32,000 nucleotides of DNA from Clostridium sp. UBA5530 (lineage in GTDB: Bacteria > Bacillota > Clostridia > Clostridiales > Clostridiaceae): the NCBI GenBank assembly GCA_002423705.1, contig DINW01000041.1:1-32000 (forward strand). The letters are read 5' to 3'. Each line of letters starts with the position of its first letter. Positions within the stretch are counted from its first letter, which is position 1. The position numbers were made by a program, and so were the translations under genes. This document shows positions 3,054-31,576 of the stretch, in pieces. The notes under the pieces were generated by a model. The model had not been told where the DNA came from. It was given only the letters and a program-made list of their open reading frames with translations, and did no database searches.

Positions 3054-3058
3054 GATAA

Positions 3059-3086: not shown

Positions 3087-3123
3087 CGTAGGAGTATCTG
3101 TTTAGGCGAAATCAAATATATAC

Positions 3124-3152: not shown

Positions 3153-3164
3153 TTTAGAAAAATA

Positions 3165-3430: not shown

Positions 3431-3454
3431 TACGTCTTTTTGTAAAGTGAAGCG

Positions 3455-3562: not shown

Positions 3563-3582
3563 AGTTAGAAGGAGTGTGTACT

Positions 3583-7951: not shown

Positions 7952-8596
7952 TTAAGGTTGTAATTCTATTGATTTGTTCTCCATATTGCTACGTCTACAA
8001 TCCAATGGATTTAGGTTTATATGATGAACAGTTTCACCTTCACAAGGGTTCATTATAAATTTGTCTAGATGAACTCTTCCATTTGGAGTATTTGCAATAA
8101 CGGAAATAGCTCCATTTCTTTTGTATTGAACCCAGTTAAAACCATCAGTTATAACATTATCTAAATCTTCAGAAGAAATTAAAGCCTTAGAATGTGGTAT
8201 GTCATACTTATCAGTTAGAATTATGGCAATGGTATCATCGTCAACCTTCTCATACTGATTTTTTTTGGTTCTTGAGACTATTTCTAAATTAGATTTTCTG
8301 TTGTCTAACATATTTCCATTAATATGTTTAACAGGAGTTTTGGCATTAGTATTTAAAATAAAAGTTTCAAGACTTTGTTTTAAAGGCTTTGCTCCTTTTA
8401 CTTTGCTTATATTTTGAATTGTATAAGCATTAAAGTCTTTATGCCACTCCACAAACCAACATCCCATTGATTTAATTCTATCTACATCATCCACGTCTAT
8501 TTGGAAAACCAATTCACCCCCATCTTTTTTCAAAGCAGTAATAGAAGCAATGGATCCTTCAATACGAAATCTATTGTTAAAAGTTTTATAATTCAT
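7952..8596 (-). CDS. HNH endonuclease-like protein with two HNH_3-type motifs
   Basis: VKHINGNMLDNRKSNLE and VHHINLNPLDCRRSNME, each preceded by a beta-rich module. ATG 8596 follows an agaggg RBS. The upstream ATG at 8617 has no RBS. Confidence 0.6.
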   Translation of the reverse strand: MNYKTFNNRFRIEGSIASITALKKDGGELVFQIDVDDVDRIKSMGCWFVEWHKDFNAYTIQNISKVKGAKPLKQSLETFILNTNAKTPVKHINGNMLDNRKSNLEIVSRTKKNQYEKVDDDTIAIILTDKYDIPHSKALISSEDLDNVITDGFNWVQYKRNGAISVIANTPNGRVHLDKFIMNPCEGETVHHINLNPLDCRRSNMENKSIELQP

Positions 8597-8720
8597 TAAG
8601 TGTGTACCCTCTTTCATAAGTATATATGAAAAGTATAACAGAGAAGGAGCAAAATTGATATAGAATTACAATAGGTGACTATATCGTTGCAGCAACCTTC
8701 TATGTTAAAGGGTCTAATGA

Positions 8721-10838: not shown

Positions 10839-13514
10839 GTGGCAGCAAGAAAAAAGATTATTAAGCTAGCAAAAAAAATGGCTGGGCCAACAAAAGCATT
10901 ATTCAAAATCGATGAAAATGCACCAGAATACTATGTATTGGACTGTATTGTAACCGATGAAATGGCAGAAGTTGCATTAGCTATGGAGCTTAGGAAACCA
11001 CAGACCCTTGAGCAAATTGCAAAAAAATGTGGAAAGCCTTTAACAGAAACAAAGGATCTTGCATATAAGTTAGCAGATGTAGGGGCTTGTATCTTTCATA
11101 GTGAAAATGGACAGGATGTATTTGAACTAACAGTGTTTGTTCCAGGGGTTATGGAAAAAACAAATGCAAATCGTGAATCTGCAGAAGCACATCCTCAGAT
11201 TGCAAAGGCCTTTGAAGAGTATGCTCGATTAAGGGGTGGGGTGTTGTCTCCTAATATGCCAATAGGAATGGGGCCAATGAGGGTTATTCCTATTGAATCT
11301 GCTATTGATGGAGATACTCGTGTGGCATCCTTTGAAGAAATATCATATCACCTAAATAAACACAACAAATTTGCAGTGGCACCATGTACATGTAGAGTAT
11401 CTAGAAGGATTTTAGGTGAAGCTTGTGGGGTTTTAGAAGATGAGTTATGTATACAATTAGGAGAAGGTGCAGAATATTATATTCGTACTGGAAGAGCTAG
11501 GGAGATTACAAAAGAAGAAGCCATTGAAATTATTAAAAAGGCAGAAGAAAATGGATTGATGCATTCAGTACCTAATATTGATGGTGCAGATACCCTTCAT
11601 GCTATTTGCAATTGTGATGGGAATTCATGTTATTCTATGAGAAATGCATTATATTTTAATTCTCCAGATATGATTCGTTCAAACTATGTAGCAAAGGTAA
11701 ATACAGATAATTGTGTTGCTTGTGGGCAATGTGTGGAGAATTGTCCTATGAATGCTTTAAAACTTGGTCAAAAATTGTGTTCTACAACCCCAATTATTCA
11801 TAAAGATTCCTTGAATCCACGAGATCATATGTGGGGTGAAAAGCATTTTAACCCAGATTACCGAAACACAAGAGAGAATGTAGTGGACACTGGAACATCT
11901 CCTTGCAAAACTCAATGTCCAGCACATATTGCAGTGCAGGGATATATAAAGTTAGCTGCCCAAGGAAGGTATATGGAAGCTCTTGAACTAATAAAAAAAG
12001 AGAATCCACTTCCAGCAGTTTGTGGTCGAATCTGTCCAAGGAAATGTGAATCAGAATGTACTAGAGGAGATATAGATGATCCAATTGCCATTGATGAAAT
12101 TAAAAAATTTATTGCAGATAAAGAAAAGCAACAAGAAACGCGTTATATTCCTAAAAAGATGCATGAATATGGGAAACCAATAGCAGTAATTGGGGCTGGT
12201 CCTGGGGGGTTATCTTGTGCTTATTACCTTGCAGTAGATGGCTATAAAGTAACAGTCTTTGAAAAACAAGAAAAATTAGGTGGCATGTTGGCCCTTGGAA
12301 TACCTTCTTTCCGTTTAGAGAAGGATGTAATCCAAGGAGAAATTCAAGTTTTACAACAACTGGGGGTAGAATTTAAAACAGGAATTGAAGTAGGGAAAGA
12401 TGTAACATTAGATCAATTAAGAGATCAAGGCTTTAAGGCATTTTATGTTGCTATAGGGGCACAGGATGGTAGATTGCTAGGTATAGAAGGGGAAGACAAC
12501 AGTGATGTTATTACTGGTGTAGATTTTCTCCGCAATGTGAACTTAGGCAAGGATGTTAAGCTAAATGGAACTGTAGTTGTCATTGGGGGAGGAAACGTAG
12601 CCATTGATGTAGCGCGAACAGCAACAAGAGTAGGTGCAGAAAGGGTTCAGATGTACTGCCTAGAGTCTGCTAATGAAATGCCTGCATTGCTAGAGGAAAT
12701 TCAAGAGGCAAATGAAGAAGGAATTTCTATTAATAATTCTTGGGGGCCAAAGCGCATTATTATTGAAGACGGCAAGGTTTCAGGTGTTGAATTCAAGAAA
12801 TGTATATCAGTATTCGATGAAAACAAAAGGTTCAATCCTCAATATGATGAAAAGGAAACCTGCATTGTGTCTGCAGACTATGTTTTAGTATCTGTAGGTC
12901 AAGGTATTAATTGGGGACAGCTCATGAAGGGAACTGCAGCAGAGTTTAATCCAAATCGCACTATAAAGGCAGATGGATTAACATACCAATCAGCACAAGA
13001 AGATGTATTTGTTGGGGGAGATTGTTATACAGGTCCCAGATTTGCCATTGATGCAATAGCTGCAGGAAAACAAGGAGCAATTTCAATTCATCGTTTTGTT
13101 TGGGAGGGTCATAGTTTAGTTTATGGACGTGACCGTAGAAAATATCATTCATTGGATAAGAAAGAAGCCATCTTAGAAGGATATGATACAACGCCAAGAC
13201 AAAAACCTGGGCATAATTCTAGTAATGAACATACATTTAAAGATACGCGATTAACCTTTACCGAGGAACAAGTTAAAGCTGAAACTTCTCGTTGTTTAGG
13301 CTGTGGAGCGGTGATACTGGATCAGAATAAATGTGTTGGCTGTGGAATGTGCACAACTAAATGCAAGTTTGATGCTATTAAATTATTTAAGAAATATGAT
13401 AAAGCAGGTACAACCTATGAAGGCCTTCCAGTGAAATTAGGAATGAATATGGCTGGACGTGTAGGAAGGATTGCAGTACGTGCAATTACAGATGCTATCA
13501 AGGGCGACAAATAG
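10839..13514 (+). CDS. Large multidomain Fe-S flavoprotein: Cys-rich N-terminal domain, ferredoxin, GltD-like NAD(P)H/FAD oxidoreductase module, C-terminal ferredoxin
   Basis: GTG 10839 after ggggggaag. Motifs CTCRVSRRILGEAC and CNCDGNSC. CVACGQCVENCP. CGRICPRKCESECTRG (GltD N-terminal cluster). Dinucleotide folds VIGAGPGGLSCAYYLA and VVIGGGNVAIDVART. CVGCGMCTTKC. Confidence 0.8.
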   Translation: MAARKKIIKLAKKMAGPTKALFKIDENAPEYYVLDCIVTDEMAEVALAMELRKPQTLEQIAKKCGKPLTETKDLAYKLADVGACIFHSENGQDVFELTVFVPGVMEKTNANRESAEAHPQIAKAFEEYARLRGGVLSPNMPIGMGPMRVIPIESAIDGDTRVASFEEISYHLNKHNKFAVAPCTCRVSRRILGEACGVLEDELCIQLGEGAEYYIRTGRAREITKEEAIEIIKKAEENGLMHSVPNIDGADTLHAICNCDGNSCYSMRNALYFNSPDMIRSNYVAKVNTDNCVACGQCVENCPMNALKLGQKLCSTTPIIHKDSLNPRDHMWGEKHFNPDYRNTRENVVDTGTSPCKTQCPAHIAVQGYIKLAAQGRYMEALELIKKENPLPAVCGRICPRKCESECTRGDIDDPIAIDEIKKFIADKEKQQETRYIPKKMHEYGKPIAVIGAGPGGLSCAYYLAVDGYKVTVFEKQEKLGGMLALGIPSFRLEKDVIQGEIQVLQQLGVEFKTGIEVGKDVTLDQLRDQGFKAFYVAIGAQDGRLLGIEGEDNSDVITGVDFLRNVNLGKDVKLNGTVVVIGGGNVAIDVARTATRVGAERVQMYCLESANEMPALLEEIQEANEEGISINNSWGPKRIIIEDGKVSGVEFKKCISVFDENKRFNPQYDEKETCIVSADYVLVSVGQGINWGQLMKGTAAEFNPNRTIKADGLTYQSAQEDVFVGGDCYTGPRFAIDAIAAGKQGAISIHRFVWEGHSLVYGRDRRKYHSLDKKEAILEGYDTTPRQKPGHNSSNEHTFKDTRLTFTEEQVKAETSRCLGCGAVILDQNKCVGCGMCTTKCKFDAIKLFKKYDKAGTTYEGLPVKLGMNMAGRVGRIAVRAITDAIKGDK

Positions 13515-13538: not shown

Positions 13539-13880
13539 ATGCACGAATTAGGTGTAGTTTTTCAAGTAATAAACACCGTGGATAGGATTGCTGATAAAGA
13601 AGGAGTAGATAAGGTTGGTGCCATAGTCCTTCAGATTGGGGAACTATCCTCTATGATTCCTATGTATGTTGAAAGCTGCTTTCCCGCAGCTATTGACGGG
13701 AAACCTCGCTATGAGAATACAAAATTAGAAATAGAAGTTATTCCTGGAGAAGCAAAATGTACACAGTGCGGAGAAATCTTCAATGTAAAACAATATGAGG
13801 GGTACTGTCCTCAATGTGATAGTTTTGATAAGGAACTTATAACTGGAAGAGAATTTATTTTAAAAGAGATTCGGGTGTAA
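13539..13880 (+). CDS. hypA: HypA/HybF-type nickel metallochaperone
   Basis: N-terminal MHELG (MHE nickel motif), zinc site CTQCG...CPQCD, 113 aa. RBS gggagg lies 24 nt after the upstream stop. Confidence 0.8.
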   Translation: MHELGVVFQVINTVDRIADKEGVDKVGAIVLQIGELSSMIPMYVESCFPAAIDGKPRYENTKLEIEVIPGEAKCTQCGEIFNVKQYEGYCPQCDSFDKELITGREFILKEIRV

Positions 13881-15470: not shown

Positions 15471-16001
15471 ATGGAAAGAAATGAAATAATCGAAACTTTA
15501 ATGAAAAAGGCTAACGTAGGTCATGAAGAGGCAGAAGAAGCACTAGAAAAGTGCAATTGGGACCTTTTAGATTCTGTTATATACTTGGAAAGAAGAAGAG
15601 AACAAAATCAGCAAATTGCTACTAGGATAGAGACAAAAGAAGAAGAAGGCAAAAAGGATCATAGCCAAAAACAGGATGATAAATGTGGCGGCATTGGAGA
15701 TGTTATTGGAAGAATATTTAAGTTCATAGGAAAGTGTATAAAAAAAGGAAATGAGAATTTCTTTGAAGTGAGAAAAGAAAATGAGAAACCAATAAGAATA
15801 TCATTGACCATATCAGTGCTTTTATTGATATTTTTAACAATACCTATTGCAGTATTGCTAATCATAGGATTGTTCTGCGGATATAAGTACTCAATATCAG
15901 GAACCAATGTTAATTACCATGGAGTAAACACGGTCTTTGAAGAAGTAGCAAAATCAGCAGATAATGTAAAAAAAGATTTCAAGGAAGGATATGAAAAATA
16001 G
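15471..16001 (+). CDS. Membrane-anchored protein with an N-terminal UBA/EF-Ts-N-like helical domain (paralog 1)
   Basis: RBS gaggagg. ANVGHEEAEEALEKCNWDLLDSVIYLE, a charged linker, then hydrophobic span ISLTISVLLLIFLTIPIAVLLIIGLFCGY. Confidence 0.6.
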   Translation: MERNEIIETLMKKANVGHEEAEEALEKCNWDLLDSVIYLERRREQNQQIATRIETKEEEGKKDHSQKQDDKCGGIGDVIGRIFKFIGKCIKKGNENFFEVRKENEKPIRISLTISVLLLIFLTIPIAVLLIIGLFCGYKYSISGTNVNYHGVNTVFEEVAKSADNVKKDFKEGYEK

Positions 16002-16016
16002 TATAGAGACTTGATA

Positions 16017-16056
16017 AAGAGATTTTGAAGGGTGTTCAAAATCTCCTTATTTTTTG
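16017..16056 (+). terminator. Rho-independent terminator after paralog 1
   Basis: gagattttgaa / ttcaaaatctc stem (16019-16047) followed by a T-run at 16049-16055. Confidence 0.7.
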
Positions 16057-16082
16057 TGGAAGTCTTAGGTAAAATGATATAA
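16054..16082 (+). promoter_or_regulatory. Candidate extended -10 promoter for paralog 2 and the two-component operon
   Basis: TTGTGG (16054-16059), 17 nt, TATAAT (16077-16082), with TG at 16074-16075. Confidence 0.4.
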
Positions 16083-16129
16083 TTTAATAATTAATAAGAA
16101 ATTTAAAACCATGGATAAGGAGGTTATTT

Positions 16130-16693
16130 GTGGATAAGCTTAAAGCTGTAAATAAATTAAGAGATAAAGCTGATATAAGTTATGAGGAAGCAAACAGTGT
16201 TCTGGAAAATAATAATTGGGATGTATTGGATTCAATTGTATATTTAGAAAAACATAAAAAGATAAAGGCACCTTCAGTCAGTATATTTTACACTAATGAA
16301 TTTAAAGAAAACTGCACTAACCAAGAAGAAGCAGTTGCCATTATTAAAAATACAAGGAAAAATAACTTTAAGGAGGAAGGTAACTTTCAGGGGCTTTTCC
16401 AAACTATATGCCAAATTATAGATACTTGTAATAATATCTTTCTTGAAATAAATCAAAAAGGCAGGAGACTTTTAAAGATTCCCGTTACAGTAATAATAGT
16501 ACTTATACTTTTTGCTTTCTGGATAATAATACCTTTGGTTGTGGTTGGATTATTTTTCGATGTAGGGTTTTTAGTGTCAAGTAAGAGAATTAGTAGGGAT
16601 AAAATAGATAAAATAAACAAGGTTTTCAACCAAATGTCTAAGAAGGTTAAAGATATAAAGGATAAATTTAAGAAGGAGGTTAGTGATGACTAG
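16130..16693 (+). CDS. Membrane-anchored protein with an N-terminal UBA/EF-Ts-N-like helical domain (paralog 2)
   Basis: GTG start 6 nt after aaggagg. ADISYEEANSVLENNNWDVLDSIVYLE, then hydrophobic IPVTVIIVLILFAFWIIIPLVVVGLFF. Its end overlaps the response-regulator start. Confidence 0.6.
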   Translation: MDKLKAVNKLRDKADISYEEANSVLENNNWDVLDSIVYLEKHKKIKAPSVSIFYTNEFKENCTNQEEAVAIIKNTRKNNFKEEGNFQGLFQTICQIIDTCNNIFLEINQKGRRLLKIPVTVIIVLILFAFWIIIPLVVVGLFFDVGFLVSSKRISRDKIDKINKVFNQMSKKVKDIKDKFKKEVSDD

Positions 16694-17366
16694 AATTCTG
16701 ATTGTTGAAGATGAAGAGAGAATAGCAAGATTTTTAGAGTTGGAATTGAATCATGAAGGATACAAAGTTATAAAAGCGGACAATGGAAGGATAGGTCTTG
16801 AAATTGCACAGCATGGTGAAGCTGACTTAGTTATACTTGATGTAATGCTTCCTGAAATTAATGGCCTTGAAGTGTTAAGAAGGCTTAGAAGAACTTCAGA
16901 TGTTCCTGTAATAATGCTTACTGCAAGAGATGCTGTTATGGATAAGGTGTCAGGTCTAGATGCAGGAGCCGATGATTATATAACCAAGCCCTTCGCAATA
17001 GAGGAGCTCTTAGCTAGAATAAGAAGAGTGCTTAAAAACACAGTAGTGTCAGTAAAAACACAGGAAAGTTTAATAAGCTGTGGATTATTAACATTAGATA
17101 AAATGAAGTATAAAGTAATGTATGATGGTCAAGAAATTGAACTTACTAACAGGGAATTTACACTGCTGAAAATATTAATGGAGAATAAAAACATAGTTTT
17201 AACTAGAGATGTGCTTATAGAAAAGGTATGTGGATATGATTATATTGGGGAAACCAATGTAATAGATGTTTATGTGAGATTTCTAAGGACAAAGATTGAT
17301 GACGTATTTAATACTAAAATAATAACCACAGTTCGTGGAGTAGGATATGTAATAAAAGATGAATAA
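16686..17366 (+). CDS. OmpR-family response regulator
   Basis: Receiver ILIVEDEE...DLVILDVMLP...ADDYITKPF. Winged-helix tail TVRGVGYVIK. RBS ggagg 6 nt upstream. Confidence 0.9.
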   Translation: MTRILIVEDEERIARFLELELNHEGYKVIKADNGRIGLEIAQHGEADLVILDVMLPEINGLEVLRRLRRTSDVPVIMLTARDAVMDKVSGLDAGADDYITKPFAIEELLARIRRVLKNTVVSVKTQESLISCGLLTLDKMKYKVMYDGQEIELTNREFTLLKILMENKNIVLTRDVLIEKVCGYDYIGETNVIDVYVRFLRTKIDDVFNTKIITTVRGVGYVIKDE

Positions 17367-18612
17367 GAATAAAAAAAACAAAAATGTTACATCTATTGCA
17401 ATAAAAATTAATGCTATCTCTGTAAGAAATTTATTTTTTAAGTTTGTTGCACTTAATATATGTTTAATTGTTATTTTAATAGGGATTTGGTGTATAGACA
17501 ATGAAAACAATTTTTATGGGGAAATAGCACAAAATGCACAAAGATCCTTTCATTTATATCCTATAGAAGAAGCTAAATATACAGTAGTGTGGGATAATGG
17601 AAAGACTATGGTTAGGGAGGCTAGTGCTTTTCTATATTTTGTTAAAAAAATAGTTATTTTACTAGGAGTTATAGAAGGAATATTTTTATTAGAGGAAATG
17701 ATATTTGGTACAGCTAAAATCAGAAAACATTTAAAACCTCTTAACGAAATAGCAGAAACAGCAAGCAGGCTTAGTAATATGGTTTTGGATGAAGAAAAGT
17801 TTCAAAGTCTTGAAGATGCCATATCTAAAATCAGTCCTACAGCTTCAGATGAAAGAATATGCATTGGAGATAGTGACCTCCAAGGGCTAGAGGATGCCAT
17901 AAATAAATTATTAGATAGAATGAGAGAGTCATATAGACAGCAGGCAAGATTTGTTTCAGACGCATCTCATGAGCTTAGAACTCCTATTTCTGTAATTCAA
18001 GGTTATGCAAACATGCTGGATCGTTGGGGGAAAAATGATGGTAATGTATTAGAAGAATCCATTGATGCAATAAAATCTGAATCGGAAAACATGAAAAATT
18101 TGGTTGAGCAATTATTATTTTTAGCTAGAGGTATCAATGGAAAAACTCAGCTTACTTTAATGAAATTTTCACTTAATGATATGATAAAAGAGGTTTTAGA
18201 GGAATCTCAAATGATAGATAAAGATCATGAGTATATCTATATGGATTCAGGAGATGCAAGTGTCTATGGAGATGTAGCATTACTTAAACAGACAGCTAGA
18301 ATATTAGTTGAAAATGCAGCTAAGTATACAGAGCAGGGGGAAGCTATTATCCTTAGGGTAGGAAAAAATAATAAGGATGAACCATACTTTTCTATTCAGG
18401 ATAATGGAATAGGAATGGATGAAGGTGACGTTCCACATATATTTCAACGGTTTTTTAGAGCAGATACAGCAAGGATTAGAAAAAACGGGGGTACAGGACT
18501 TGGATTATCCATAGCAAAGTGGATTGTTGATAACCATAGAGGATATTTCGGCGTCCTAAGCAGAAAAGACATAGGAACAAGGGTAACGGTGTTTTTACCA
18601 CAAAAATTATAA
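17359..18612 (+). CDS. Sensor histidine kinase (HisKA + HATPase_c)
   Basis: H-box SHELRTPISVIQGY, N-box ENAAKYT, DNGIGM, GGTGLGLSIAK, and two N-terminal hydrophobic spans. Overlaps the RR stop. Confidence 0.9.
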   Translation: MNKNKKNKNVTSIAIKINAISVRNLFFKFVALNICLIVILIGIWCIDNENNFYGEIAQNAQRSFHLYPIEEAKYTVVWDNGKTMVREASAFLYFVKKIVILLGVIEGIFLLEEMIFGTAKIRKHLKPLNEIAETASRLSNMVLDEEKFQSLEDAISKISPTASDERICIGDSDLQGLEDAINKLLDRMRESYRQQARFVSDASHELRTPISVIQGYANMLDRWGKNDGNVLEESIDAIKSESENMKNLVEQLLFLARGINGKTQLTLMKFSLNDMIKEVLEESQMIDKDHEYIYMDSGDASVYGDVALLKQTARILVENAAKYTEQGEAIILRVGKNNKDEPYFSIQDNGIGMDEGDVPHIFQRFFRADTARIRKNGGTGLGLSIAKWIVDNHRGYFGVLSRKDIGTRVTVFLPQKL

Positions 18613-20855: not shown

Positions 20856-20884
20856 TTGACAGTATAGGTTAAATGAGGTATTAT
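20856..20884 (+). promoter_or_regulatory. Candidate sigma-A promoter for the cobalamin-riboswitch transcript
   Basis: TTGACA (20856-20861), 17 nt, TATTAT (20879-20884). Confidence 0.55.
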
Positions 20885-20906
20885 AAAGAAGGAAAATTTA
20901 ATAATA

Positions 20907-21072
20907 TAATTACAGTGCATGTGGAATATCATGCTTAAATGGGAACACGGTTAGAATCCGTGACAGTCACGCTGCTGTATGGTGAACGAAAGCCCAAGAA
21001 TGTCACTGGAGAGAAATCTCTGGGAAGGCGGGTAAGTAGGTTGAAGCTAAGTCAGAATATCTGCTGTAATTA
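20907..21072 (+). promoter_or_regulatory. Cobalamin (B12) riboswitch aptamer
   Basis: P1 taattacag (20907-20915) / ctgtaatta (21064-21072). Core aaatgggaacacggttagaatccgtgacagtcacgctgctgta. gtcactgg...gggaaggcg. B12-box-like agtcagaatatctgc. Confidence 0.9.
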
Positions 21073-21223
21073 CAGACAATGTTTATCCTTTCGACAGAAA
21101 AGGATGTCTGAACTTTAGTAAACACAGATTTGAGGATTTAAATATGTATGTTCTGTTGTAAACATTTACAGAAACATGTGTAGTTGCTATTAAGTGTATT
21201 AGTAAAGGAAACTGATGATTTTA

Positions 21224-21256
21224 AGACAGGCTGTCGAAGGACAGTCTGTTTTTTAA
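21224..21256 (+). terminator. Riboswitch-associated intrinsic terminator
   Basis: 12-bp stem agacaggctgtc / gacagtctgttt with GAAG loop, followed by a T-run. It lies 32 nt before ATG 21288. Confidence 0.75.
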
Positions 21257-21287
21257 TTTTCATTAAAGAGAAAGGGAGAGAAGGAAG

Positions 21288-24200
21288 ATGAAACAAACTA
21301 AAAGGATTATGTCTATCTTGCTGTGTTGCTGTTTGATGATGAGCTGGCTTTTTACAGCATTTCCAAAGGTAGCAAAAGCACAGAGAATAGGCAGTAAACA
21401 GACCTCAGTAATTGCAGATGTAGAAGTTGGGCTTATAATCAATAGCTTAAGTGAAAGAATTACAGAGAGACCAGTTGATCTCAAGGTACCCTATAGTAAG
21501 TTTAGTGAGCTAGGATTACAAGTTAGCAATGACGATCCTGGCTTCATAACCCCACTACATGTACTTGCACAATACTATATTCAGAAAAAAGGAGCTACCG
21601 TTGATAATATAAAACAATACATCGATATAAATACTGATGGCATAGTGAATAACATTGAGGATATCAATGGTATTGATAAGGGAAATAATGCTGATGCACA
21701 GTGGGTTTGCAGTGCAAGCTTTAGTGATAATGCCACTAATAATTTTACTACCTCAGAAGTAACATCCCAATGGGGAAAAGCTTCAGTATATTTTTATGGC
21801 ATAAGTAAAGCAGAAACCAAATTCGTAGCAAACGGAAATACAATGATAAACGCTGCTGCTGGAGTACCAGGAGATATTTATTTGAATGTAAGCTCTTATA
21901 ATAGCGAGGACTCAACATTAAATGCCATGGATGGTGCAACGACCTTAGTAAAACGAATTAATGATGATGGATCTAAAGTTGTAATATCACCAAACGAAGG
22001 AAACTATACTTTAGATGAGATAAAAGATAATGCTCTCAATTTTAAATTTAATGAAATAGGGAATTATGAAATATACCTTCAGAAGATTGACGGTAATAAA
22101 AGACTTTCAAATGCCTCTTATATTTTAGTTAATGTAGAGTCTAAAGAGCAGTATAATTTTAAACAAGATTGGGATTCTGTGAATTGGCCTGAGCACAATA
22201 CAGTTATGGGTGGTAATAGAACTAATGGCATGATTACTAGTGGAATAACTGTAGTTGGCACATACGGGCAAACAAAAGTTCATTGGAAGAGTTCTGACGA
22301 GAGCATTATAAAAATCACCTCTGATTATGATAAAGATCGTCTTCTCTATGAAACTACCAATATGGGTCTTGGGGATAGAGAGGTAGAAATTACAGCCAAT
22401 GCTGTGGATCCCTCAGGGAAAACTTATAGCAAAACATTTATGTTAACAATCTTAGGTGTAGACACAACAAAATTATCAAATTTAGAGGTTGAAGGAATTC
22501 CAAACTTTCATTTTGTAGAAGGAAAAGGAACTTATCGGTTTACTTTAGATAAAAATATGAGAGAAATCAAGGTTATTGCTACCCCTCTAGCCACAGATTT
22601 GGGATCAAATCTAAAATTAAAGGTTGGTAGTCAGCAGTATAAGTTTGGAGAACCTATCACCTTTAAAATTGATCCAAACAAAGTATTGAATTCTTTTTCT
22701 ATTATAGTAGAGAGATATCATTCCAAAGGGTTTAGCGGAGCCTTAGCAGTAAGCAAAAGTACTTATACGATTGAATTTTATAAGTCAGCAACAACTTTAC
22801 CAGCATATGATGCTTTTTATGGAATGGCACGAGTTGATAGCAGTAATAGTAGTATTGTAAATGCATTGACTCCCAGAAATATAAATGATATTGATGTAGA
22901 AGCCACCTGGGAAAAGGCTATTCGTAAAAATGGTGATGGAATGATGGGATGGGGAAAATGGACCTATCCAATTGTGGTAGATAAGCATATTTATATAGCG
23001 GTGGATCAAGAACTTCGTAAATATGATATGGATGGAAATTTAGTAAAAACAGGTGAAATAGGCACAACCGTATTAGGTGGAGGCTATACAGGATGGCTTG
23101 CTTATGGAGATGGAATGATCTTTGTTCCTATTGGTTCAGCAGTATATGCCTTTAACGCAAACGACCTCTCACCATTATGGAGAGGAGATACAGGAATACA
23201 CGCATCTCAGAGTAGTGCTCCTGTTTTATATCACAATGGTTATATTTATTCTGGAATTACTACAGGTGGAGGAAATCCCCCTACTGGTGGTTTCTATTGT
23301 ATGGATGTTATCGATGAAAATCCAGATAATCCTACGGAGAGGAAAGATGCTATATGGACTATAGAAGGCCCTAGTTTTTATTGGGCAGGAGCTTGCATAG
23401 CAGGAGATTACCTAGTTGTCCCTTGTGATACTGGAGATGTTTATTCAATAGATTTAAAAAAATCTATTACTCAGAAAAAGGCAGTTATTGTGGATATTTT
23501 AAATATGAGTGACAATGATAATGTGGGGGTAACAAGTTCCAAAGATAGAGCTCAGAGAAGTCGAATTCGCTCATCTGTACTCTATGATGACCAAAGAAAT
23601 ACAATTTACTATTCATCTTATAGTGGAAACTTTCATGCTGCAAAGATTGATAATGGAAAATTTCAAAAGGGAAAAAATAATGAGAACGTTAAAAGTCTTT
23701 CTTTAGGAGTATACAACAACTCTTCAGTTACCTTTAATGGGAAAGTATACGTTTGTGGACAAAAAGGACTAAATGTTATTGATGCTGACACCTTTAAGTT
23801 ACTTTACACAGCTCCTTTTGAGGCTGGAGAGGAAACTCAGCTTGGGAGCCTGACTCTTTCTACAGCATATGCAAACAAAGAAAATGGACAACAGATATAT
23901 TTATATTTCAACACAAATACCAACCCAAATAAAATTTATGTTTTCGCTGATAATGATAAAGCAGCTTCTGGCATAGTAAAAAAGTTATATGAGGCTAAAA
24001 CTTATCCTCAATATTCCACCTCTAATGTTGTTGTGGCAGATGATGGTTCATTGCTTGCAGTTAATGACTATTGCTCTATGTTGCGTATTAAAGGTACTGC
24101 AACTATAGAAACTTTGAAACAGGAGAAATATGTACAGACAATGATTAACGACCTTGGAGACAAACTTACTGATGAAAATGAAGAAGCATTTTTAGAGGCT

Positions 24201-24479
24201 GAAAAGGCTTATACTGAATTGACTGAGGCTCAAAAAGGACAAATAGACAATGCAAAATTGATAGCATTTAGATCACAATATAATGAAAAGCATAAGGAGC
24301 ATAAAGAAAATAGCACTAGCCAAGGTAAAGGGGAAGAAAATAATTTAGACAAAACAATAAACTCACCAGACACAGGTGATAAAACATCTATCCTTACTAT
24401 TTTAATAGCATTAATAGGGACCATAGAGGTTATCATATTTTCCAGAAAGAACAGAATTCATAGATTTACATCCAAGTAA
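21288..24479 (+). CDS. Secreted, sortase-anchored multidomain surface protein: DUF4430/transcobalamin-like N-domain, Ig-like and cadherin-like beta-sandwich domains, PQQ-like beta-propeller
   Basis: Signal peptide MKQTKRIMSILLCCCLMMSWLFTAFPKVAKA|Q. The N-domain (GFITPLHVLAQYY...DGIVNNIEDINGI...AQWVC) is DUF4430-like. LSNLEVEGIPNFHFVEGKGTYRFTLDKNMREIKVIATP is cadherin-like. The propeller-like region has repeated strand patterns (IYIAVDQELRKYDMDGNLV, MIFVPIGSAVYAFNANDLSPLW, LVVPCDTGDVYSID, VYVCGQKGLNVIDADTFKLLY). Confidence 0.8.
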   Translation: MKQTKRIMSILLCCCLMMSWLFTAFPKVAKAQRIGSKQTSVIADVEVGLIINSLSERITERPVDLKVPYSKFSELGLQVSNDDPGFITPLHVLAQYYIQKKGATVDNIKQYIDINTDGIVNNIEDINGIDKGNNADAQWVCSASFSDNATNNFTTSEVTSQWGKASVYFYGISKAETKFVANGNTMINAAAGVPGDIYLNVSSYNSEDSTLNAMDGATTLVKRINDDGSKVVISPNEGNYTLDEIKDNALNFKFNEIGNYEIYLQKIDGNKRLSNASYILVNVESKEQYNFKQDWDSVNWPEHNTVMGGNRTNGMITSGITVVGTYGQTKVHWKSSDESIIKITSDYDKDRLLYETTNMGLGDREVEITANAVDPSGKTYSKTFMLTILGVDTTKLSNLEVEGIPNFHFVEGKGTYRFTLDKNMREIKVIATPLATDLGSNLKLKVGSQQYKFGEPITFKIDPNKVLNSFSIIVERYHSKGFSGALAVSKSTYTIEFYKSATTLPAYDAFYGMARVDSSNSSIVNALTPRNINDIDVEATWEKAIRKNGDGMMGWGKWTYPIVVDKHIYIAVDQELRKYDMDGNLVKTGEIGTTVLGGGYTGWLAYGDGMIFVPIGSAVYAFNANDLSPLWRGDTGIHASQSSAPVLYHNGYIYSGITTGGGNPPTGGFYCMDVIDENPDNPTERKDAIWTIEGPSFYWAGACIAGDYLVVPCDTGDVYSIDLKKSITQKKAVIVDILNMSDNDNVGVTSSKDRAQRSRIRSSVLYDDQRNTIYYSSYSGNFHAAKIDNGKFQKGKNNENVKSLSLGVYNNSSVTFNGKVYVCGQKGLNVIDADTFKLLYTAPFEAGEETQLGSLTLSTAYANKENGQQIYLYFNTNTNPNKIYVFADNDKAASGIVKKLYEAKTYPQYSTSNVVVADDGSLLAVNDYCSMLRIKGTATIETLKQEKYVQTMINDLGDKLTDENEEAFLEAEKAYTELTEAQKGQIDNAKLIAFRSQYNEKHKEHKENSTSQGKGEENNLDKTINSPDTGDKTSILTILIALIGTIEVIIFSRKNRIHRFTSK
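24363..24476 (+). other. C-terminal cell-wall sorting signal, (S/P)PxTG type
   Basis: SPDTG, then hydrophobic ILTILIALIGTIEVIIF, then basic tail SRKNRIHR. The SPxTG motif is the class used by the Clostridioides difficile sortase. Confidence 0.7.
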
Positions 24480-25656: not shown

Positions 25657-25926
25657 ATGAAATATGTAAATGCTATAGAAATATTACCACAAAGTTTGCT
25701 TAATGAAATTCAGAAGTATATAGCTGGTGATGTACTATATATTCCACAGGTTAAAGGTGAGAAAAACTCATGGGGGAGTAGGACAGGTACAAGACAGGAA
25801 ATTATTAATAGAAATAAACAAATTAAGTATGAAAAACATAATGGAAAGACCATTGATGAACTTATGGTAAAGTATAATCTTTCCTATGATACAATTAAAA
25901 AAATCGTATATGCAAAACACAGGTAA
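25657..25926 (+). CDS. Small HTH protein of the Mor / CD3324-like type
   Basis: 89 aa. YIPQVKGEKNSWGSRTGTRQEIINRNKQI ... IDELMVKYNLSYDTIKKIVY. RBS aagggag. Confidence 0.5.
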   Translation: MKYVNAIEILPQSLLNEIQKYIAGDVLYIPQVKGEKNSWGSRTGTRQEIINRNKQIKYEKHNGKTIDELMVKYNLSYDTIKKIVYAKHR

Positions 25927-26978: not shown

Positions 26979-27746
26979 ATGAAGAATATATTAAGTGTAG
27001 AGAAAATTGAGAAGTATTATGGTAGTAAAGAGAATGTTACAAAGGCCATAGATAATATAAGTTTTAAAGTGGATCATGGAGAATTTGTTGGTATAATGGG
27101 ACCTTCAGGAAGTGGAAAAACCACATTGCTTAATTGTATATCCACCATAGACAATGTTACTACAGGGAAAATAACCATAAATAATAATGATATTACCAGA
27201 CTAAAATCAAAGAAATTAGATGAGTTTAGACAAAAGGAATTAGGATTTATATTTCAAGACTTTAACCTGTTAGATACCCTCACAGCCTACGAAAACATTG
27301 CTTTAGCATTGACAATAAAAGGAGAAAGTAGTTCCAACATAGATGAAAAGATAAAGTCAGTGGCTAAATATTTGGACATAGAAGAGGTGTTAAGAAAATA
27401 TCCTTATCAAATGTCGGGAGGACAAAAACAGAGAGTGGCTTCAGCAAGGGCAATAGTAACTGAGCCATCTCTAGTCCTTGCAGATGAACCAACAGGAGCA
27501 TTAGATTCAAAGTCATCTAGATTATTACTAGAAAGATTGGAAAAGCTCAACAAGGATTTGAATACTACAATTCTTATGGTTACTCATGATTCCTTTACAG
27601 CTAGTTATGCTCATAGAATACTCTTTATTAAAGATGGAAAAATTTTTAGTGAGCTAGTTAGGGGAAATGATACTAGAAAGGAATTTTTTAATAAAATTAT
27701 AGAAGTTATAACCCTACTTGGAGGTGATGACAACAATGTATTCTAA
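26979..27746 (+). CDS. ABC transporter ATP-binding protein, BceA/MacB-type
   Basis: Walker A GPSGSGKTT, signature MSGGQKQRVASARA, Walker B LVLADEPTGALD, H-loop VTHD. Confidence 0.9.
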   Translation: MKNILSVEKIEKYYGSKENVTKAIDNISFKVDHGEFVGIMGPSGSGKTTLLNCISTIDNVTTGKITINNNDITRLKSKKLDEFRQKELGFIFQDFNLLDTLTAYENIALALTIKGESSSNIDEKIKSVAKYLDIEEVLRKYPYQMSGGQKQRVASARAIVTEPSLVLADEPTGALDSKSSRLLLERLEKLNKDLNTTILMVTHDSFTASYAHRILFIKDGKIFSELVRGNDTRKEFFNKIIEVITLLGGDDNNVF

Positions 27747-29727
27747 GATAGCTATAGGAAATATAAAAAAGAGCTATAAAGATTATACTATATATTTCTT
27801 AACCCTGATTTTGGCTGTTTGTATATTTTATAGCTTTAACTCTATAGATTCACAACAAGCTCTTACTGGTGTAAAAGCCTTAAAGGCAGAGTATATAGCC
27901 AAGCTCACAGAGATTATTTCCTTGGTATCAGTGTTTGTATCAGTGATATTAGGAGGGTTGATATTATATGCAAATAATTTCTTAATAAAGAAACGTAAAA
28001 AAGAGTTAGGAATATACATGACTCTAGGTATGGGAAAAAGAAAAATATCGAAAATTTTAGTCATAGAGACCCTTATAGTTGGAGCTATATCCTTAATTGC
28101 AGGCATCCTATTAGGAATAGTTGTGTCTCAGGGGTTGTCAGCATTCACATTAAAACTATTTAATGTTGAAATCAGTGAGTATAAATTTGCTATTTCTACA
28201 GGGGCTATAGGCAAAACTATAATATATTTCGGAATAATGTTTTTGCTGGTTATGGTTTTTAATGTGTTTATTATTTCAAAGTATAAAATAATTGATTTAT
28301 TAGCTGCAGGAAGAAAAAATGAAAAGATAAAGTTCAAAAATCCATTTATATATTTAGTTACCTTTGTTTTATGTGTGGCATCCCTAGTATTTACATATAA
28401 GTATATGTTAAAAATAGGGTTAGATACTAGAGACCCTATGTTTAAACCATTGATAATGCTTGTAGTAGCAGGAACTGTACTATTCTTCTTTAGCTTGTCT
28501 GGAGTGATACTATATATAGTAAATAAAAACGAAAACTTATATCTAAAGGGTTTAAACATATTTGTTGTAAAACAGATAAATAGTAAAATAAATACAAATT
28601 TTATATCTATGTCAGTAATATGTTTAATGCTATTTATAACAATGGTTGTATTATCCACAGGAATAAGCTTTAAAAAAGGTTTTGAAGCAGGGCTTGAAAA
28701 GGAAACACCCTTTGATGCAAGTATAATGATTACTAGGAATGATAAACAAGAAAGTTTAGAAAGTATATTAAATAAGATTGACTTTAAGATAAATAGTAAT
28801 GAAGAATACGCAACCTATAATGAGTACCTATCGGGATTAGAGGTTGGGGATTTACTGTCAATTACAAATAAAGAATATGACGACATTGAAGCAAATCTCC
28901 TTAAGATATCTGATTATAACAAGATGCTAAAACTTAGAGGAAAGAAAGACATAAGTTTAGACACCAATGAGGTTTTAATTATGTCTAACTATAATGTATT
29001 GGTTAAGCCTGTAAATGAAAGGCTGAAGAATAACAGGAAGATTAATATGAAGGGCAAAGAATACTCCATAAAAAATGATGAAATAATAGAAGAAAATTTA
29101 TCAAACTATATTATGGCAAATAATCTTTTTACAATAGTAGTAAATGATGAAATCATAGATGGGAATAATAAAATCGCTATTTCAGGAATCAATGTAATGT
29201 ATTCAGATGATAATAGAGAGGAAAACAATAAAAAATATAGTGAAGTAAACAAGAATTTTATAAAAGGTAAATATGAAGATATAGATCCTATTTTTATTCA
29301 TGCTCTGTCAAAGGATGACAGATATATAAATGCAGAGAGCGCAACAACATCTATATTGTTTATTGGGATATATTTAGGACTAGTATTTTTAATAACCAGC
29401 ATGGCTGTACTGGCTCTTCAACAATTATCGGAAGCTAGCGATAGTATTGAAAGATATAGAGCATTGAAAAGAATTGGGGCCAATAAAAAAATGATAGATA
29501 AGACTATATTTACCCAGACTCTTATATATTTTAGTCTACCAGTAATATTAGCATTAGTTCATGCTATTGTGGGTATTACAATGGTTAGTAAAGAAATAAG
29601 TAAGTTTAGTCAAATAGATATTAGATTTTCAGCTTCAATAACAGCCTTAATCTTTGTGGTGATTTATGGAGGATATTTCTATACAACCTATGTTGGATAT
29701 AAAAACATAGTAAAAAATAATATTTAG
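27736..29727 (+). CDS. FtsX-family ABC permease, BceB-type (10 TM with a large extracellular loop)
   Basis: Start MYSKIAIGNIKKSYKDYTIYFLTL after ggagg. Two FtsX-like TM bundles are separated by a ~200-aa hydrophilic domain (aa ~330-540). Overlaps the ATPase gene by 11 nt. Confidence 0.85.
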   Translation: MYSKIAIGNIKKSYKDYTIYFLTLILAVCIFYSFNSIDSQQALTGVKALKAEYIAKLTEIISLVSVFVSVILGGLILYANNFLIKKRKKELGIYMTLGMGKRKISKILVIETLIVGAISLIAGILLGIVVSQGLSAFTLKLFNVEISEYKFAISTGAIGKTIIYFGIMFLLVMVFNVFIISKYKIIDLLAAGRKNEKIKFKNPFIYLVTFVLCVASLVFTYKYMLKIGLDTRDPMFKPLIMLVVAGTVLFFFSLSGVILYIVNKNENLYLKGLNIFVVKQINSKINTNFISMSVICLMLFITMVVLSTGISFKKGFEAGLEKETPFDASIMITRNDKQESLESILNKIDFKINSNEEYATYNEYLSGLEVGDLLSITNKEYDDIEANLLKISDYNKMLKLRGKKDISLDTNEVLIMSNYNVLVKPVNERLKNNRKINMKGKEYSIKNDEIIEENLSNYIMANNLFTIVVNDEIIDGNNKIAISGINVMYSDDNREENNKKYSEVNKNFIKGKYEDIDPIFIHALSKDDRYINAESATTSILFIGIYLGLVFLITSMAVLALQQLSEASDSIERYRALKRIGANKKMIDKTIFTQTLIYFSLPVILALVHAIVGITMVSKEISKFSQIDIRFSASITALIFVVIYGGYFYTTYVGYKNIVKNNI

Positions 29728-29745
29728 TCTTATAATATAGTTATT

Positions 29746-29815
29746 AAGGTTATTAAATTTTGCTGCTCAAAGTTTAATAGCCTTATCTTTATATAATGGT
29801 ATGATTATATAAAGA
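29746..29815 (+). terminator. Two tandem hairpins after the permease gene
   Basis: aaggttattaaa (29746-29757) pairs with tttaatagcctt (29773-29784). atctttatataat (29785-29797) pairs with attatataaagat (29803-29815). Confidence 0.45.
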
Positions 29816-29885
29816 TAGGACTTAAGATAAAGTATGGAGAAATCTCTATTTAAGTTTAACTTTGATTTTAAGAGGGGAGGAAGAA

Positions 29886-30560
29886 GTGGTGAGAAAAATT
29901 ATTATTATTGAAGATGATGAAGTTATGAGAGAAGAATTGCAGAACTTCTTGAAGCGATATGGATACCAAGTAAGTATTCCAACAGAATTTAATAACATAA
30001 TAGAATATATAAAAGGTGAGGAAGGTGACCTTATATTATTAGATATAAATCTTCCAGCCTTCGATGGTTATTATATATGCAGGGAGGTACGCAAAGTATC
30101 AGACATACCAATTATAATAGTTACAAGCAGAGATAGTGAAGTTGATGAATTAATAAGTATGAACTTGGGAGCAGATGATTTTATAACTAAGCCCTATAAT
30201 ACAGAAATATTATTAGCAAGGATAACAAATTTATTGAAGAGAACCTACGGCAATTCAAAGACTAATAATATATTAAATTATAAAGGTATCAATTTAAATC
30301 TTTCAAATGCTACAGTAACCTATAAAACTGAATCTTTGGAGCTAACCAAAAATGAAGTTAAGATACTTTCATATTTAATAAATAATAGAGGAAATATAGT
30401 AAAGAGAGATTCTCTTATGGAACATTTGTGGAAAGCAGACTACTTTGTAGATGACAGTACCTTAAGTGTTAATATTAATAGGTTAAGAAAAAAGCTTGAA
30501 GAGATAGGTATAGAAAATCCAATAGAAACGAGAAGGGGATTAGGGTATATTATGCCATGA
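29886..30560 (+). CDS. OmpR-family response regulator, BceR-like
   Basis: GTG 29886 (or 29889) after gaggggagg. IIIIEDDE...DLILLDINLP...ADDFITKPY. RRGLGYIM. Confidence 0.9.
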   Translation: MVRKIIIIEDDEVMREELQNFLKRYGYQVSIPTEFNNIIEYIKGEEGDLILLDINLPAFDGYYICREVRKVSDIPIIIVTSRDSEVDELISMNLGADDFITKPYNTEILLARITNLLKRTYGNSKTNNILNYKGINLNLSNATVTYKTESLELTKNEVKILSYLINNRGNIVKRDSLMEHLWKADYFVDDSTLSVNINRLRKKLEEIGIENPIETRRGLGYIMP

Positions 30561-31576
30561 GTATAGGAGAATTTATTAAAGATAAGATGATTATAATAGT
30601 ATGCAATATGATTTTATTTATTATATTAGCATCTATAATGGTAGTTATTAACACTGATATTATTGTAATAGTGTTTATGTTTTGCTTGTGGTTTTTTCCT
30701 ATGGGGTCATATATGGCCTTAGAATTTATAAAGTATAAAAATTATTACAATGAAATTGAGGCCATGTTAGAAAAGTTAAATAAAAAATATCTAGTTCCAG
30801 AAATGATAAAAGAAGCAAATTTTGTGGAAGGTGAGAAACTCAATAATATACTAAAGGAAATAAGCAGAGACATGCATGAAAATGTGAAGTATTACAAAGA
30901 TATGCAAGAGGAGTATAGAGAATATATAGAGGCATGGGTCCATGAAATTAAGACTCCAATAGCATCTGCAAAATTAGTCATTGAAAATAACAAAAATGAA
31001 GTCACTGACAAAATAGACCTTCAGCTAGATAGGATTGAGAGATTTGTAGAGCAGGTTCTTTACTACTCCCGCAGCAATAATGTTGGAAAGGACTATATTA
31101 TAAAGCAGATTGATCTTAATAATATAGTTAGAAATGTAATAAAAAGAAATTATAGAGACTTTATTCACAAAAAAATAAAACTAGATATCCAGGATACTAG
31201 TGAAGTAGTATATAGCGATGGAAAGTGGACAGAATTTATACTTAATCAAATAATAGTAAATTCTATAAAGTATTCAAGAGATAAAGAGCCCATGATAAAC
31301 ATCTATTCAATTAAGGAAACTAACTCAGTTATGCTAATTATAGAGGATAATGGAGTTGGGATAAATCATAAGGATATAAATAGAGTTTTTGAAAAAGGAT
31401 TTACTGGAGATAATGGAAGGAAATTTAGTAAAAGTACAGGGATGGGGCTTTATCTGTGCGAAAAGCTTTGTACAAAATTGGGATTAAAAATTGCCATTGA
31501 TTCAGATCCCGAGAAAGGAACTAAGGTAACGTTAATATTCCCGTTATCATCCATGGCCACATTTAGAGATGATTAA
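30557..31576 (+). CDS. Intramembrane-sensing histidine kinase, BceS-like
   Basis: Two N-terminal TM helices with almost no external loop. H-box VHEIKTPIASAKL, N-box NSIKYS, DNGVGI, GMGLYLCEKL. ATGA overlap with the RR gene. Confidence 0.85.
   Translation: MSIGEFIKDKMIIIVCNMILFIILASIMVVINTDIIVIVFMFCLWFFPMGSYMALEFIKYKNYYNEIEAMLEKLNKKYLVPEMIKEANFVEGEKLNNILKEISRDMHENVKYYKDMQEEYREYIEAWVHEIKTPIASAKLVIENNKNEVTDKIDLQLDRIERFVEQVLYYSRSNNVGKDYIIKQIDLNNIVRNVIKRNYRDFIHKKIKLDIQDTSEVVYSDGKWTEFILNQIIVNSIKYSRDKEPMINIYSIKETNSVMLIIEDNGVGINHKDINRVFEKGFTGDNGRKFSKSTGMGLYLCEKLCTKLGLKIAIDSDPEKGTKVTLIFPLSSMATFRDD

Follow-up and report, generated by a model that had tools for sequence, protein, structure and literature searches.

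A cobalamin riboswitch that precedes the gene for a large, predicted surface protein is found in Clostridium sp. UBA5530, in positions 1 to 32,000 of contig DINW01000041.1 (the window, 32,000 nucleotides in all). Here the aptamer and a terminator stand before a single open reading frame (ORF), whose 1063-amino-acid (aa) product carries a BamB-like beta-propeller and ends in an SPDTG sorting motif; the identical 1063-aa protein is present in the NCBI and Logan assemblies. With moderate confidence, this product is read as a cobalamin-riboswitch-repressed, sortase-anchored accessory protein of corrinoid acquisition. The general idea that Gram-positive surface proteins scavenge B12 was already published as a prediction for proteins of the SLBB superfamily (Burroughs et al., 2007; PMC1796856), and what is added here is the propeller family as the unit that tracks cobalamin riboswitches. 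The features of the locus are as follows.

20856-20884, + strand: promoter-like site TTGACA-17-TATTAT, 11 of 12 matches, ending about 11 nt 5' of the aptamer
20896-21082, + strand: cobalamin riboswitch aptamer, full-length class with P6 extension (Rfam RF00174)
21088-21097, + strand: candidate antiterminator strand, 10 bp possible with 21231-21240 (terminator 5' arm and loop)
21223-21262, + strand: intrinsic terminator of the expression platform, 13-bp stem, GAAG loop and U-run (hairpin 21223-21252)
21274-21280, + strand: ribosome-binding site GGGAGAG, 7 nt 5' of the ATG, from sequence
21288-24479, + strand: ORF of the riboswitch-controlled, predicted surface protein, 1063 aa, ATG start
21288-21380, + strand: Sec signal peptide, aa 1-31 (KQTKR, hydrophobic stretch, cleavage between AKA and Q), read by inspection
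21405-21842, + strand: divergent DUF4430 (SLBB / transcobalamin-beta-like) beta-grasp domain, aa ~40-185, by remote homology and fold
21843-22778, + strand: three probable beta-sandwich spacer domains, aa 186-497, on a weak basis
22779-24122, + strand: BamB/PQQ-like beta-propeller, aa 498-945, the most conserved part and the unit defining the family
24123-24362, + strand: helical segment and charged low-complexity stalk, aa 946-1025, read by inspection
24363-24476, + strand: cell-wall sorting signal, aa 1026-1063 (SPDTG at aa 1026-1030, hydrophobic segment, RKNRIHR tail)

The aptamer matches RF00174 over the whole model (positions 1-189 of 189) at 109 bits against a gathering score of 31.5 (E 1.1e-26), and the aptamer that a first-pass annotation of this DNA had placed at 20907-21072 is thereby borne out with a small shift of coordinates. 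A covariance model of our own, R1, scores it at 151.6 bits, a match by construction because R1 was built partly from the window sequence. The terminator, claimed earlier at 21224-21256, is likewise present as a 13-bp hairpin (21223-21252, computed at -18.8 kcal/mol) followed by a U-run; it begins 141 nt past the aptamer and 5' of the ribosome-binding site, and the expression platform sits between the aptamer and the regulated ORF. The leader as a whole folds more stably than 200 of 200 shuffles (z = -3.3). Promoter-like sites are no more numerous in the region than in shuffles, and therefore only the position of the site at 20856-20884 is informative; from it the transcript start is placed a few bases 5' of the aptamer. 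The candidate antiterminator duplex is computed at -12.3 kcal/mol (constrained fold of 21060-21240 plus duplex fold), and its first strand, 21088-21097, is alternatively locked in a local hairpin (21074-21110) that is present in the minimum-free-energy structure of the leader. The same order of promoter-like site, aptamer, terminator-like hairpin and ORF is seen in the leaders of the orthologues of Clostridium sp. JNZ X4-2 and C. luticellarii. The next gene downstream is a convergent GNAT gene on the - strand, and the riboswitch-controlled ORF is therefore monocistronic.

Domains of the encoded protein

Scans of the whole protein against Pfam and NCBIfam give sub-threshold matches only, including PF13570 at 20 bits against a cut-off of 133 and a weak NCBIfam match to a sortase-dependent surface protein family, and a PDB sequence search with the protein gives no match. 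With these direct scans near-silent, the domain calls are taken from family profiles and models. Alignment with the first four homologues shows two conserved blocks, aa ~40-185 and aa ~498-945. The two ends of the protein are legible by eye, and inspection of the translation agrees with the earlier claim of a signal peptide and an SPDTG sorting signal: comparable signal peptides begin all homologues, and the sorting signal is tripartite, with SPDTG, a 19-residue hydrophobic stretch (aa 1034-1052) and the basic tail RKNRIHR. Tails of the xPxTG type are frequent among family members, and these motifs point to a predicted surface location through wall anchoring.

The family to which the propeller belongs is visible only in an exhaustive search of 1.84 billion representative sequences, which returned 447 clusters at E<=1e-3, nearly all matching aa ~500-940; a first, word-indexed homologue search had given only four proteins. 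In this family PQQ_2 is matched by 37 of 50 representatives at E<=1e-3 and Beta-prop_ACSF4 by 29 of 50, and a 20-sequence propeller profile (A3) matches BamB in the PDB at 5.5e-13. An AlphaFold2 (AF2) model built on A3 (pLDDT 90.5, pTM 0.91) has about 33 strands, and the best Foldseek match of this model in the PDB is again BamB (E 8e-17, TM 0.71-0.79 on the target, about 430 columns), followed in the top 50 by tetrathionate hydrolase, designed propellers (Cake) and WD40 proteins. The region of roughly 400 aa described in the first-pass annotation as a PQQ-like propeller thus stands, and its model and profiles assign it to the BamB/PQQ type. The propeller apparently has eight blades, a number taken from the AF2 model and Foldseek and not counted on coordinates. 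BamB and the PQQ_2 propellers, which are the best profile and structural matches for aa 498-945, share about 15% identity with it, and BamB works in Gram-negative outer-membrane biogenesis; what is shared is the fold and not the function.

The presence of enzymes among these matches bears on an explanation in which the protein would act outside uptake, with the riboswitch serving as a signal of scarcity for a B12-sparing or unrelated function, such as that of an extracellular PQQ-type propeller enzyme. Cobalamin riboswitches also govern B12-independent isozymes (PMC3766115), and some eight-bladed PQQ-type propellers are enzymes, with tetrathionate hydrolase and quinoprotein dehydrogenases among the matches. 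The best matches, however, are to the non-enzymatic BamB, the window protein has no PQQ-enzyme Pfam match, and the consistent operon partners of the family are SLBB proteins and energy-coupling factor (ECF) importers rather than metabolic enzymes, which makes this the least probable of the explanations considered here.

In about 22 of 153 family proteins, as judged with a local hidden Markov model (HMM), the N-terminal domain follows directly on the signal peptide. In an alignment of these domains (A4), 14 of 22 match PF14478 (DUF4430; best E 8.9e-12), the window copy not being among them, and an hhalign comparison of the A4 family with canonical DUF4430 (A8) gives a probability of 93% (E 2.8e-7). 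The AF2 model of the domain (pLDDT 91, pTM 0.87) has as its top Foldseek matches in the PDB 5no0, 2v3n, 7qbg, 2bb6, 8ixt, 4kki, 2pmv and 3u7z, that is, the transcobalamin beta domain, whole transcobalamins, haptocorrin, intrinsic factor and a DUF4430 structure (3u7z), with probabilities up to 0.98 and weak E-values (0.02-0.1). The family profile finds no match among PDB sequences, so that transcobalamin is reached only by fold comparison. The resemblance of the window copy to DUF4430 is thus one of remote homology and predicted fold.

Between these two blocks, beta-sandwich spacers are probable. The cadherin-like stretch (aa 396-499) matches PF12733 at 18.6 bits against a cut-off of 24.2, and an aBig_2-like stretch (about aa 300-392) lies opposite the above-cut-off aBig_2 domains of the relatives P0003 and P0004 in alignment A1. 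The Ig-like and cadherin-like spacers proposed earlier are therefore kept as probable beta-sandwiches, while the individual domain calls within the window protein stay below threshold. A helical motif similar to that of the stalk segment is repeated in P0004.

Riboswitches and operon partners of the relatives

The first relatives of the window protein show 64%, 41% and 36% identity, and the nearest by name are from Clostridium sp. JNZ X4-2 (locus L001, 64%) and C. luticellarii (L002, 41%). In both, a cobalamin riboswitch lies 337-371 nt before the gene, and in a Lachnospiraceae relative (L009) one lies 330 nt before it. Orthologues thus stand behind cobalamin riboswitches, as would be expected from the first-pass annotation, in 3 of 3 close relatives with upstream DNA (L001, L002 and L009), and the same is seen in the wider propeller family, which was taken as 79 loci with the propeller from species-representative genomes. 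These loci were scanned first with R1, built from seven Clostridium sequences, and then every negative or weak locus was scanned with Rfam. R1 gave no match at E<=1e-3 for 12 riboswitches later confirmed by Rfam (7 at E 0.016-0.98 and 5 unlisted), and counts from R1 alone would therefore understate the association.

A cobalamin riboswitch lies upstream on the gene strand at 42 of the 79 loci (41 observed, plus L008, the L002 gene again but with the DNA before it truncated), a fraction to be read as descriptive because the loci are not phylogenetically independent. The distance to the ORF is at most 400 nt in about twenty of the positive loci, and 52 of 53 R1 matches are on the gene strand. From the published density of cobalamin riboswitches, 535 in 197 genomes (PMC3766115), we estimate an expectation of less than one in the upstream DNA scanned. 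Family members use sortase signals, transmembrane anchors, SLH, dockerin or type IX secretion system (T9SS) tails, and many consist of little beyond a signal peptide, the propeller and an anchor, directly behind a riboswitch (e.g. L032 with 515 aa and L011 with 786 aa).

The usual layout in the relatives is riboswitch, propeller protein, DUF4430 protein and ECF importer, and the stand-alone gene of the window is the unusual case among them. Clusters of B12-uptake genes that include a member of the propeller family occur in many anaerobes of gut and soil. Where ORFs lie between a distal riboswitch and the propeller gene, DUF4430 is found in 11 of 26 (as FecR-DUF4430 membrane proteins and DUF4430 lipoproteins), and other intervening ORFs encode complete ECF modules (T component, fused A-A' ATPase and S component) or belong to cobinamide salvage; at one locus, four intervening ORFs read as cbiB, cobD, cobQ and cbiZ-like, from translations and not from a family scan. 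A scan of 85 ORFs, which comprised the same-strand chains downstream of the propeller gene and four neighbours of the close relative L007, gave ABC_tran in 17, DUF4430 in 14, the ECF S component in 10 and CbiQ in 6.

Such partners might also serve another ligand, a different tetrapyrrole or a metal such as haem or cobalt, taken up with the help of transcobalamin-like subunits and an ECF transporter. A Lactobacillus sakei preprint proposes haem uptake by an ECF operon with transcobalamin alpha- and beta-like extracellular subunits (10.1101/864751), and the partner ECF genes match families of the CbiQ/CbiO type, which were first linked to cobalt (PMC1796856). Against this, the cobalamin riboswitches counted above tie expression to corrinoid status and not to iron or haem, the one locus with the four ORFs named from translations sets the gene in an operon of the cbiB/cobD/cobQ type, and in Bacteroidetes members the fusion partner is a domain with a solved structure that contains cyanocobalamin; a ligand other than a corrinoid is accordingly judged very improbable.

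Established B12-binding modules accompany the propeller in cis and in trans. Local HMMs find an SLBB domain in cis at 23 of the 79 loci, in a neighbouring ORF at 49 and in either position at 56, and a riboswitch or an SLBB domain is present at 64 of 79. P0004 (36% identity over 68% of the query) bears a canonical DUF4430 towards its C-terminus, and the neighbouring gene upstream also encodes a DUF4430 protein. In Bacteroidetes, P0021 combines DUF4430, the propeller and a T9SS tail, and in P0027 a DUF5074 domain matches PDB 9S6C, the structure of BtuK1 with cyanocobalamin (PMC13616437), at E 1e-15; DUF5074 occurs in 5 of 50 family representatives.

It is from this company that the most serious competing explanation arises, in which the uptake system is the same and the propeller binds no corrinoid. 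It would then be a scaffold or tether that may attach to polysaccharide of the wall or capsule, or serve as a docking site for SLBB proteins or the transporter, as BamB docks proteins, and the only corrinoid-binding parts would be SLBB/DUF4430 or BtuK-like modules, whether in cis or in trans; since the SLBB copy of the window protein is degenerate, that protein might then bind no corrinoid itself. Burroughs et al. (2007) took the propeller and the Ig domains of SLBB fusions for tethers at the surface and proposed surface complexes of paralogous SLBB proteins (PMC1796856). The propeller is nearly always found with an established B12-binding module, as the 56 of 79 loci and the fusions to BtuK1-like and DUF4430 domains show, its closest structural relatives (BamB) are protein-protein docking platforms, and the ligand-contact region of the window's N-terminal domain is degenerate. 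On the other side, many members are barely more than signal peptide, propeller and anchor behind a riboswitch (L032 and L011 among them), the propeller is far more conserved than the other parts, as expected of a functional core, and in Bacteroides the propeller fold has been put to B12 binding on at least two occasions, in BtuG and BtuK1 (PMC13616437). A non-binding propeller is regarded as unlikely, though it has to be taken seriously.

Several further observations concern the relatives and their surroundings. In C. luticellarii, four cobalamin riboswitches lie within 8.3 kb (L002, 5483-13762), one before the propeller orthologue, a tandem pair (11712-11895 and 12013-12194) before a 269-aa secreted DUF4430-like protein and one (13571-13762) before a 989-aa secreted protein with no Pfam match, so that the region looks like a small island of B12-controlled surface proteins. 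In Clostridium sp. JNZ X4-2, a cobalamin riboswitch (L001, 889-1069) is followed by an insertion-sequence transposase on the opposite strand (DDE_Tnp_1; region 889-3687) and looks orphaned by the insertion, and a further R1 match (11052-11214, 78 bits) lies among PDDEXK_2/DUF4351 genes. Rpn-like genes of this PDDEXK_2/DUF4351 type with GIEKGIEKG repeats (L001 4101-5084, L002 10271-11257) flank both orthologues, as do ParE/Phd toxin-antitoxin pairs, which suggests that these surface-protein genes lie in a mobile or recombination-prone region.

Within the genome set, the propeller finds its closest match (L006, 5563-6873; 69% in the best segment) in a metagenome-assembled genome (MAG) labelled Prolixibacteraceae, where a Clostridium-like gene on a Bacteroidota-labelled contig is broken into several ORFs (P0023 with the N-terminal domain, P0010 and P0182); long-read frameshifts, a pseudogene, a mis-binned contig or horizontal transfer are all possible. 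An archaeal homologue (L010, 5863-7419; 518 aa, 34% identity) is found in a Methanomethylophilaceae archaeon MAG, with no riboswitch and no SLBB domain nearby, and is likely a horizontal acquisition in a methanogen dependent on corrinoid methyltransferases.

Corrinoid capture and known systems

In the mechanism that we propose for the window gene, plentiful corrinoid would bind the aptamer, the terminator (21223-21252) would form and transcription would halt before the ORF, whereas scarcity would leave the competing pairing (candidate 21088-21097 with 21231-21240) to permit read-through. The 1063-aa product would be exported by Sec and joined to peptidoglycan through its SPDTG signal. The helical segment and charged stalk would project it from the wall, displaying the BamB-like propeller, the three beta-sandwich spacers and the distal transcobalamin-beta-like domain, and free corrinoids would be captured by the protein at the cell surface. 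The captured corrinoid would then be handed to a membrane importer encoded elsewhere in the genome; the operons of relatives contain genes for an ECF transporter and a separate DUF4430 protein. The first-pass annotation had named the gene a candidate for Gram-positive surface B12 capture, and as a candidate it is supported by membership of the B12 regulon, predicted surface location and domain make-up; the domain and orthologue checks named there as possible refutations did not contradict it.

Capture of free corrinoid may be set against a form of piracy or adhesion, in which the propeller would bind a corrinoid-loaded carrier protein (of host or microbial origin), vesicles or the surface of a B12 producer, and SLBB proteins would then strip the B12. 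The architecture is that of an adhesin (long, multi-domain and wall-anchored, with Ig-like spacers), expression under B12 scarcity only would fit a foraging adhesin, and the family is common in gut and rumen Clostridia and in Bacteroidales, where carrier- and vesicle-bound B12 exist (vesicle reservoirs: PMC12751083, PMC13616437). Against this, the nearest named relatives are Clostridium species (C. luticellarii and Clostridium sp. JNZ X4-2), and the close association in operons with ECF importers of small molecules is accounted for more simply if free corrinoid is what is captured; we hold piracy to be improbable.

A number of observations weigh against a role in corrinoid acquisition, or against parts of it. 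At the locus, the antiterminator pairing is a candidate drawn from computed folds, and Pfam scans of the other ORFs of at least 80 aa in the window find no BtuFCD, ECF or cobalamin genes and no sortase gene. The claim that a single large gene follows the riboswitch without an adjoining BtuFCD or ECF transporter is in this respect correct, since no B12 transporter is found in the whole 32 kb. In the family, no riboswitch is found in the available DNA of 37 of the 79 loci, including the close relative L007 (at 8 of these the upstream DNA is shorter than 600 nt), the non-independence of the loci noted above applies to the remainder, and the pairing of the propeller with bona fide B12-binding domains fits the role of a non-binding partner equally well. 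In the protein, PF14478 has no match in the whole sequence or the isolated N-terminal domain, even at E<=1, and the window's own subclade of that domain (A9) shows no similarity to canonical DUF4430 in hhalign. The direct claim that the window copy is DUF4430 is rejected on this null subclade profile and is replaced by that of a divergent member reached through intermediates; the resemblance first proposed holds through intermediate relatives (14 of 22 and hhalign) and the fold. The canonical ligand-contact region, SGWMY-VNG...GD, is degenerate in the window protein, P0002 and P0023 (alignment A4), the window copy reading QWVCSASFSD, with no GD and only the conserved Trp kept, and the window's N-terminal domain may therefore have lost corrinoid binding. 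No protein named BtuG or BtuK is among the best 60 of 63 PDB matches (E<=1) of the propeller profile, and BtuG is absent from the Foldseek top 50 of the propeller model. In the literature searched, no experimental work was found on any SLBB/BamB-like propeller protein of this family, and a 2026 review calls extracellular cobamide capture in Gram-positive bacteria (Firmicutes) 'entirely uncharacterized' (PMC13616437).

The nearest precedent is the SLBB superfamily described by Burroughs et al. (2007), who predicted B12 scavenging by Gram-positive surface SLBB proteins, listed a Clostridium fusion of SLBB with a beta-propeller (gi 28210494) and reported SLBB operons with CbiO- and CbiQ-like genes (PMC1796856). 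Like those proteins, the window protein is predicted to be secreted and wall-anchored, is multi-domain, comes from a low-GC Gram-positive organism and combines a transcobalamin-beta-like beta-grasp with Ig-like domains and a beta-propeller, and its relatives are operon-linked to CbiQ/CbiO-type (ECF) genes and to paralogous SLBB proteins. That study was purely computational and took the propeller for a tether, whereas here the propeller family itself tracks riboswitches whether SLBB is in cis or not; the SLBB copy of the window protein is also degenerate, and its gene stands alone, unlike the cases described there. The available part of the text of PMC1796856 makes no mention of riboswitches, and in the literature searched no statement was found that the BamB-like propeller family tracks them.

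Another point of comparison is BtuG, a Bacteroides surface lipoprotein with a seven-bladed propeller that binds B12 with femtomolar to picomolar affinity and caps BtuB (PMC10404256, PMC13616437). The likeness is that BtuG is a cobalamin-regulon protein of a corrinoid-scavenging organism, as the window protein is a predicted surface beta-propeller protein in a cobalamin regulon, and that its fusion to a second B12-binding domain in BtuGH parallels the SLBB domain and propeller of the window protein. There is no detectable sequence relation, however, and a BamB/PQQ-type propeller of apparently eight blades stands against one of seven. Unlike the lipoprotein, the window protein has cleavage between AKA and Q with no lipobox Cys at the cleavage site and an SPDTG sortase signal, and its cell has no outer membrane and no TonB-dependent partner; the 32-kb window has no btuB by Pfam scans of ORFs of at least 80 aa. 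Corrinoid binding, measured for BtuG, is for the window protein predicted. Homology of the propeller to BtuG is rejected on the PDB profile search and the Foldseek top 50, and since the propeller is of the BamB/PQQ type, the comparison with BtuG is analogy only. The proposal of a BtuG-like device thus survives as an analogy and not as a structural or sequence relation.

A second Bacteroides protein, BtuK1 (BT1486), has a PKD domain and a seven-bladed propeller, DUF5074, and binds cyanocobalamin (PDB 9S6C). In Bacteroidetes, a BtuK1-like DUF5074 shares a polypeptide with the propeller of the window's family, so that one protein there makes use of both types of propeller; a Pfam scan finds no DUF5074 in the window protein, and its propeller is of a different family. 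Among animal B12 carriers, the model of the N-terminal domain is closest to the beta domain of transcobalamin, intrinsic factor and haptocorrin, in keeping with the homology of its family to DUF4430, which InterPro names the transcobalamin-like C-terminal domain. Unlike these carriers, the window protein lacks the alpha/alpha toroid partner, and the hairpin/SGWMY contact region is not conserved. On the importer side, the relatives are co-transcribed with ECF T, A-A' and S components and DUF4430 proteins, which is like the B12 importer ECF-CbrT (PMC5997447), and have transcobalamin-like subunits alongside ECF as in the Lsa1836-1840 operon of L. sakei (10.1101/864751). Unlike either, the window gene has no adjoining transporter, and neither system has a propeller protein in the available parts of these two sources.

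A more far-reaching proposal can be offered only tentatively, and we rate it below the acquisition role as such. The BamB-like propeller would itself be a corrinoid-binding module of a new kind that arose independently, as the equivalent of BtuG and BtuK in Gram-positive bacteria; together with SLBB, in cis or in trans, it would form a two-part clamp replacing the sandwich of alpha-toroid and beta domain in transcobalamin; it would be the outer stage of an extracellular relay feeding ECF B12 importers across Clostridia; and it would have been borrowed by Bacteroidetes and fused there to BtuK1-like domains.

Competition for vitamin B12 and its analogues shapes anaerobic microbial communities, and the only machinery for surface capture that is understood at the molecular level is that of Bacteroides (BtuG, BtuH, BtuJ and BtuK). 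Relative to those characterised proteins, the fold family, the anchor and the envelope are all different here. The locus and several hundred related protein clusters offer a concrete, testable candidate, and a strong one, for the B12-capture device presumed to exist in Gram-positive bacteria, an acknowledged open question: a BamB-like propeller, predicted to be wall-anchored, under cobalamin-riboswitch control in about half of the species examined and regularly accompanied by ECF importers and transcobalamin-like domains. Should the propeller bind corrinoids, the fold would have been recruited for B12 capture independently once more, and the family would be a marker for predicting corrinoid-scavenging Firmicutes; if it does not, the family nonetheless defines a partner of the transcobalamin-like proteins of bacteria that is obligatory and had gone unrecognised.

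Other features of the window

The only ABC genes in the window are a truncated fragment (316-705) and a BceAB-like pair of ABC ATPase and FtsX permease, which with its own two-component system occupies 26979-31576 and is unrelated to the B12 finding. The BceAB-like ABC/FtsX genes (26979-29727) were considered as the missing B12 transporter and rejected on their domains and the adjacent two-component system. Also unrelated are two adjacent DUF4342 ORFs followed by a response regulator and a histidine kinase (15471-18612). A T-box leader (RF00230) at 3162-3406 on the + strand, at 98 bits just above its gathering score of 93, precedes an ORF (3535-5574) for a class-I methionyl-tRNA-synthetase-like protein (PF09334), and AUG is readable by eye in its specifier region. 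An HNH endonuclease ORF (7952-8617, - strand) and a Mor-family activator ORF (25657-25926, + strand), which lie amid several GNAT acetyltransferase genes, may be remnants of mobile elements around the locus.

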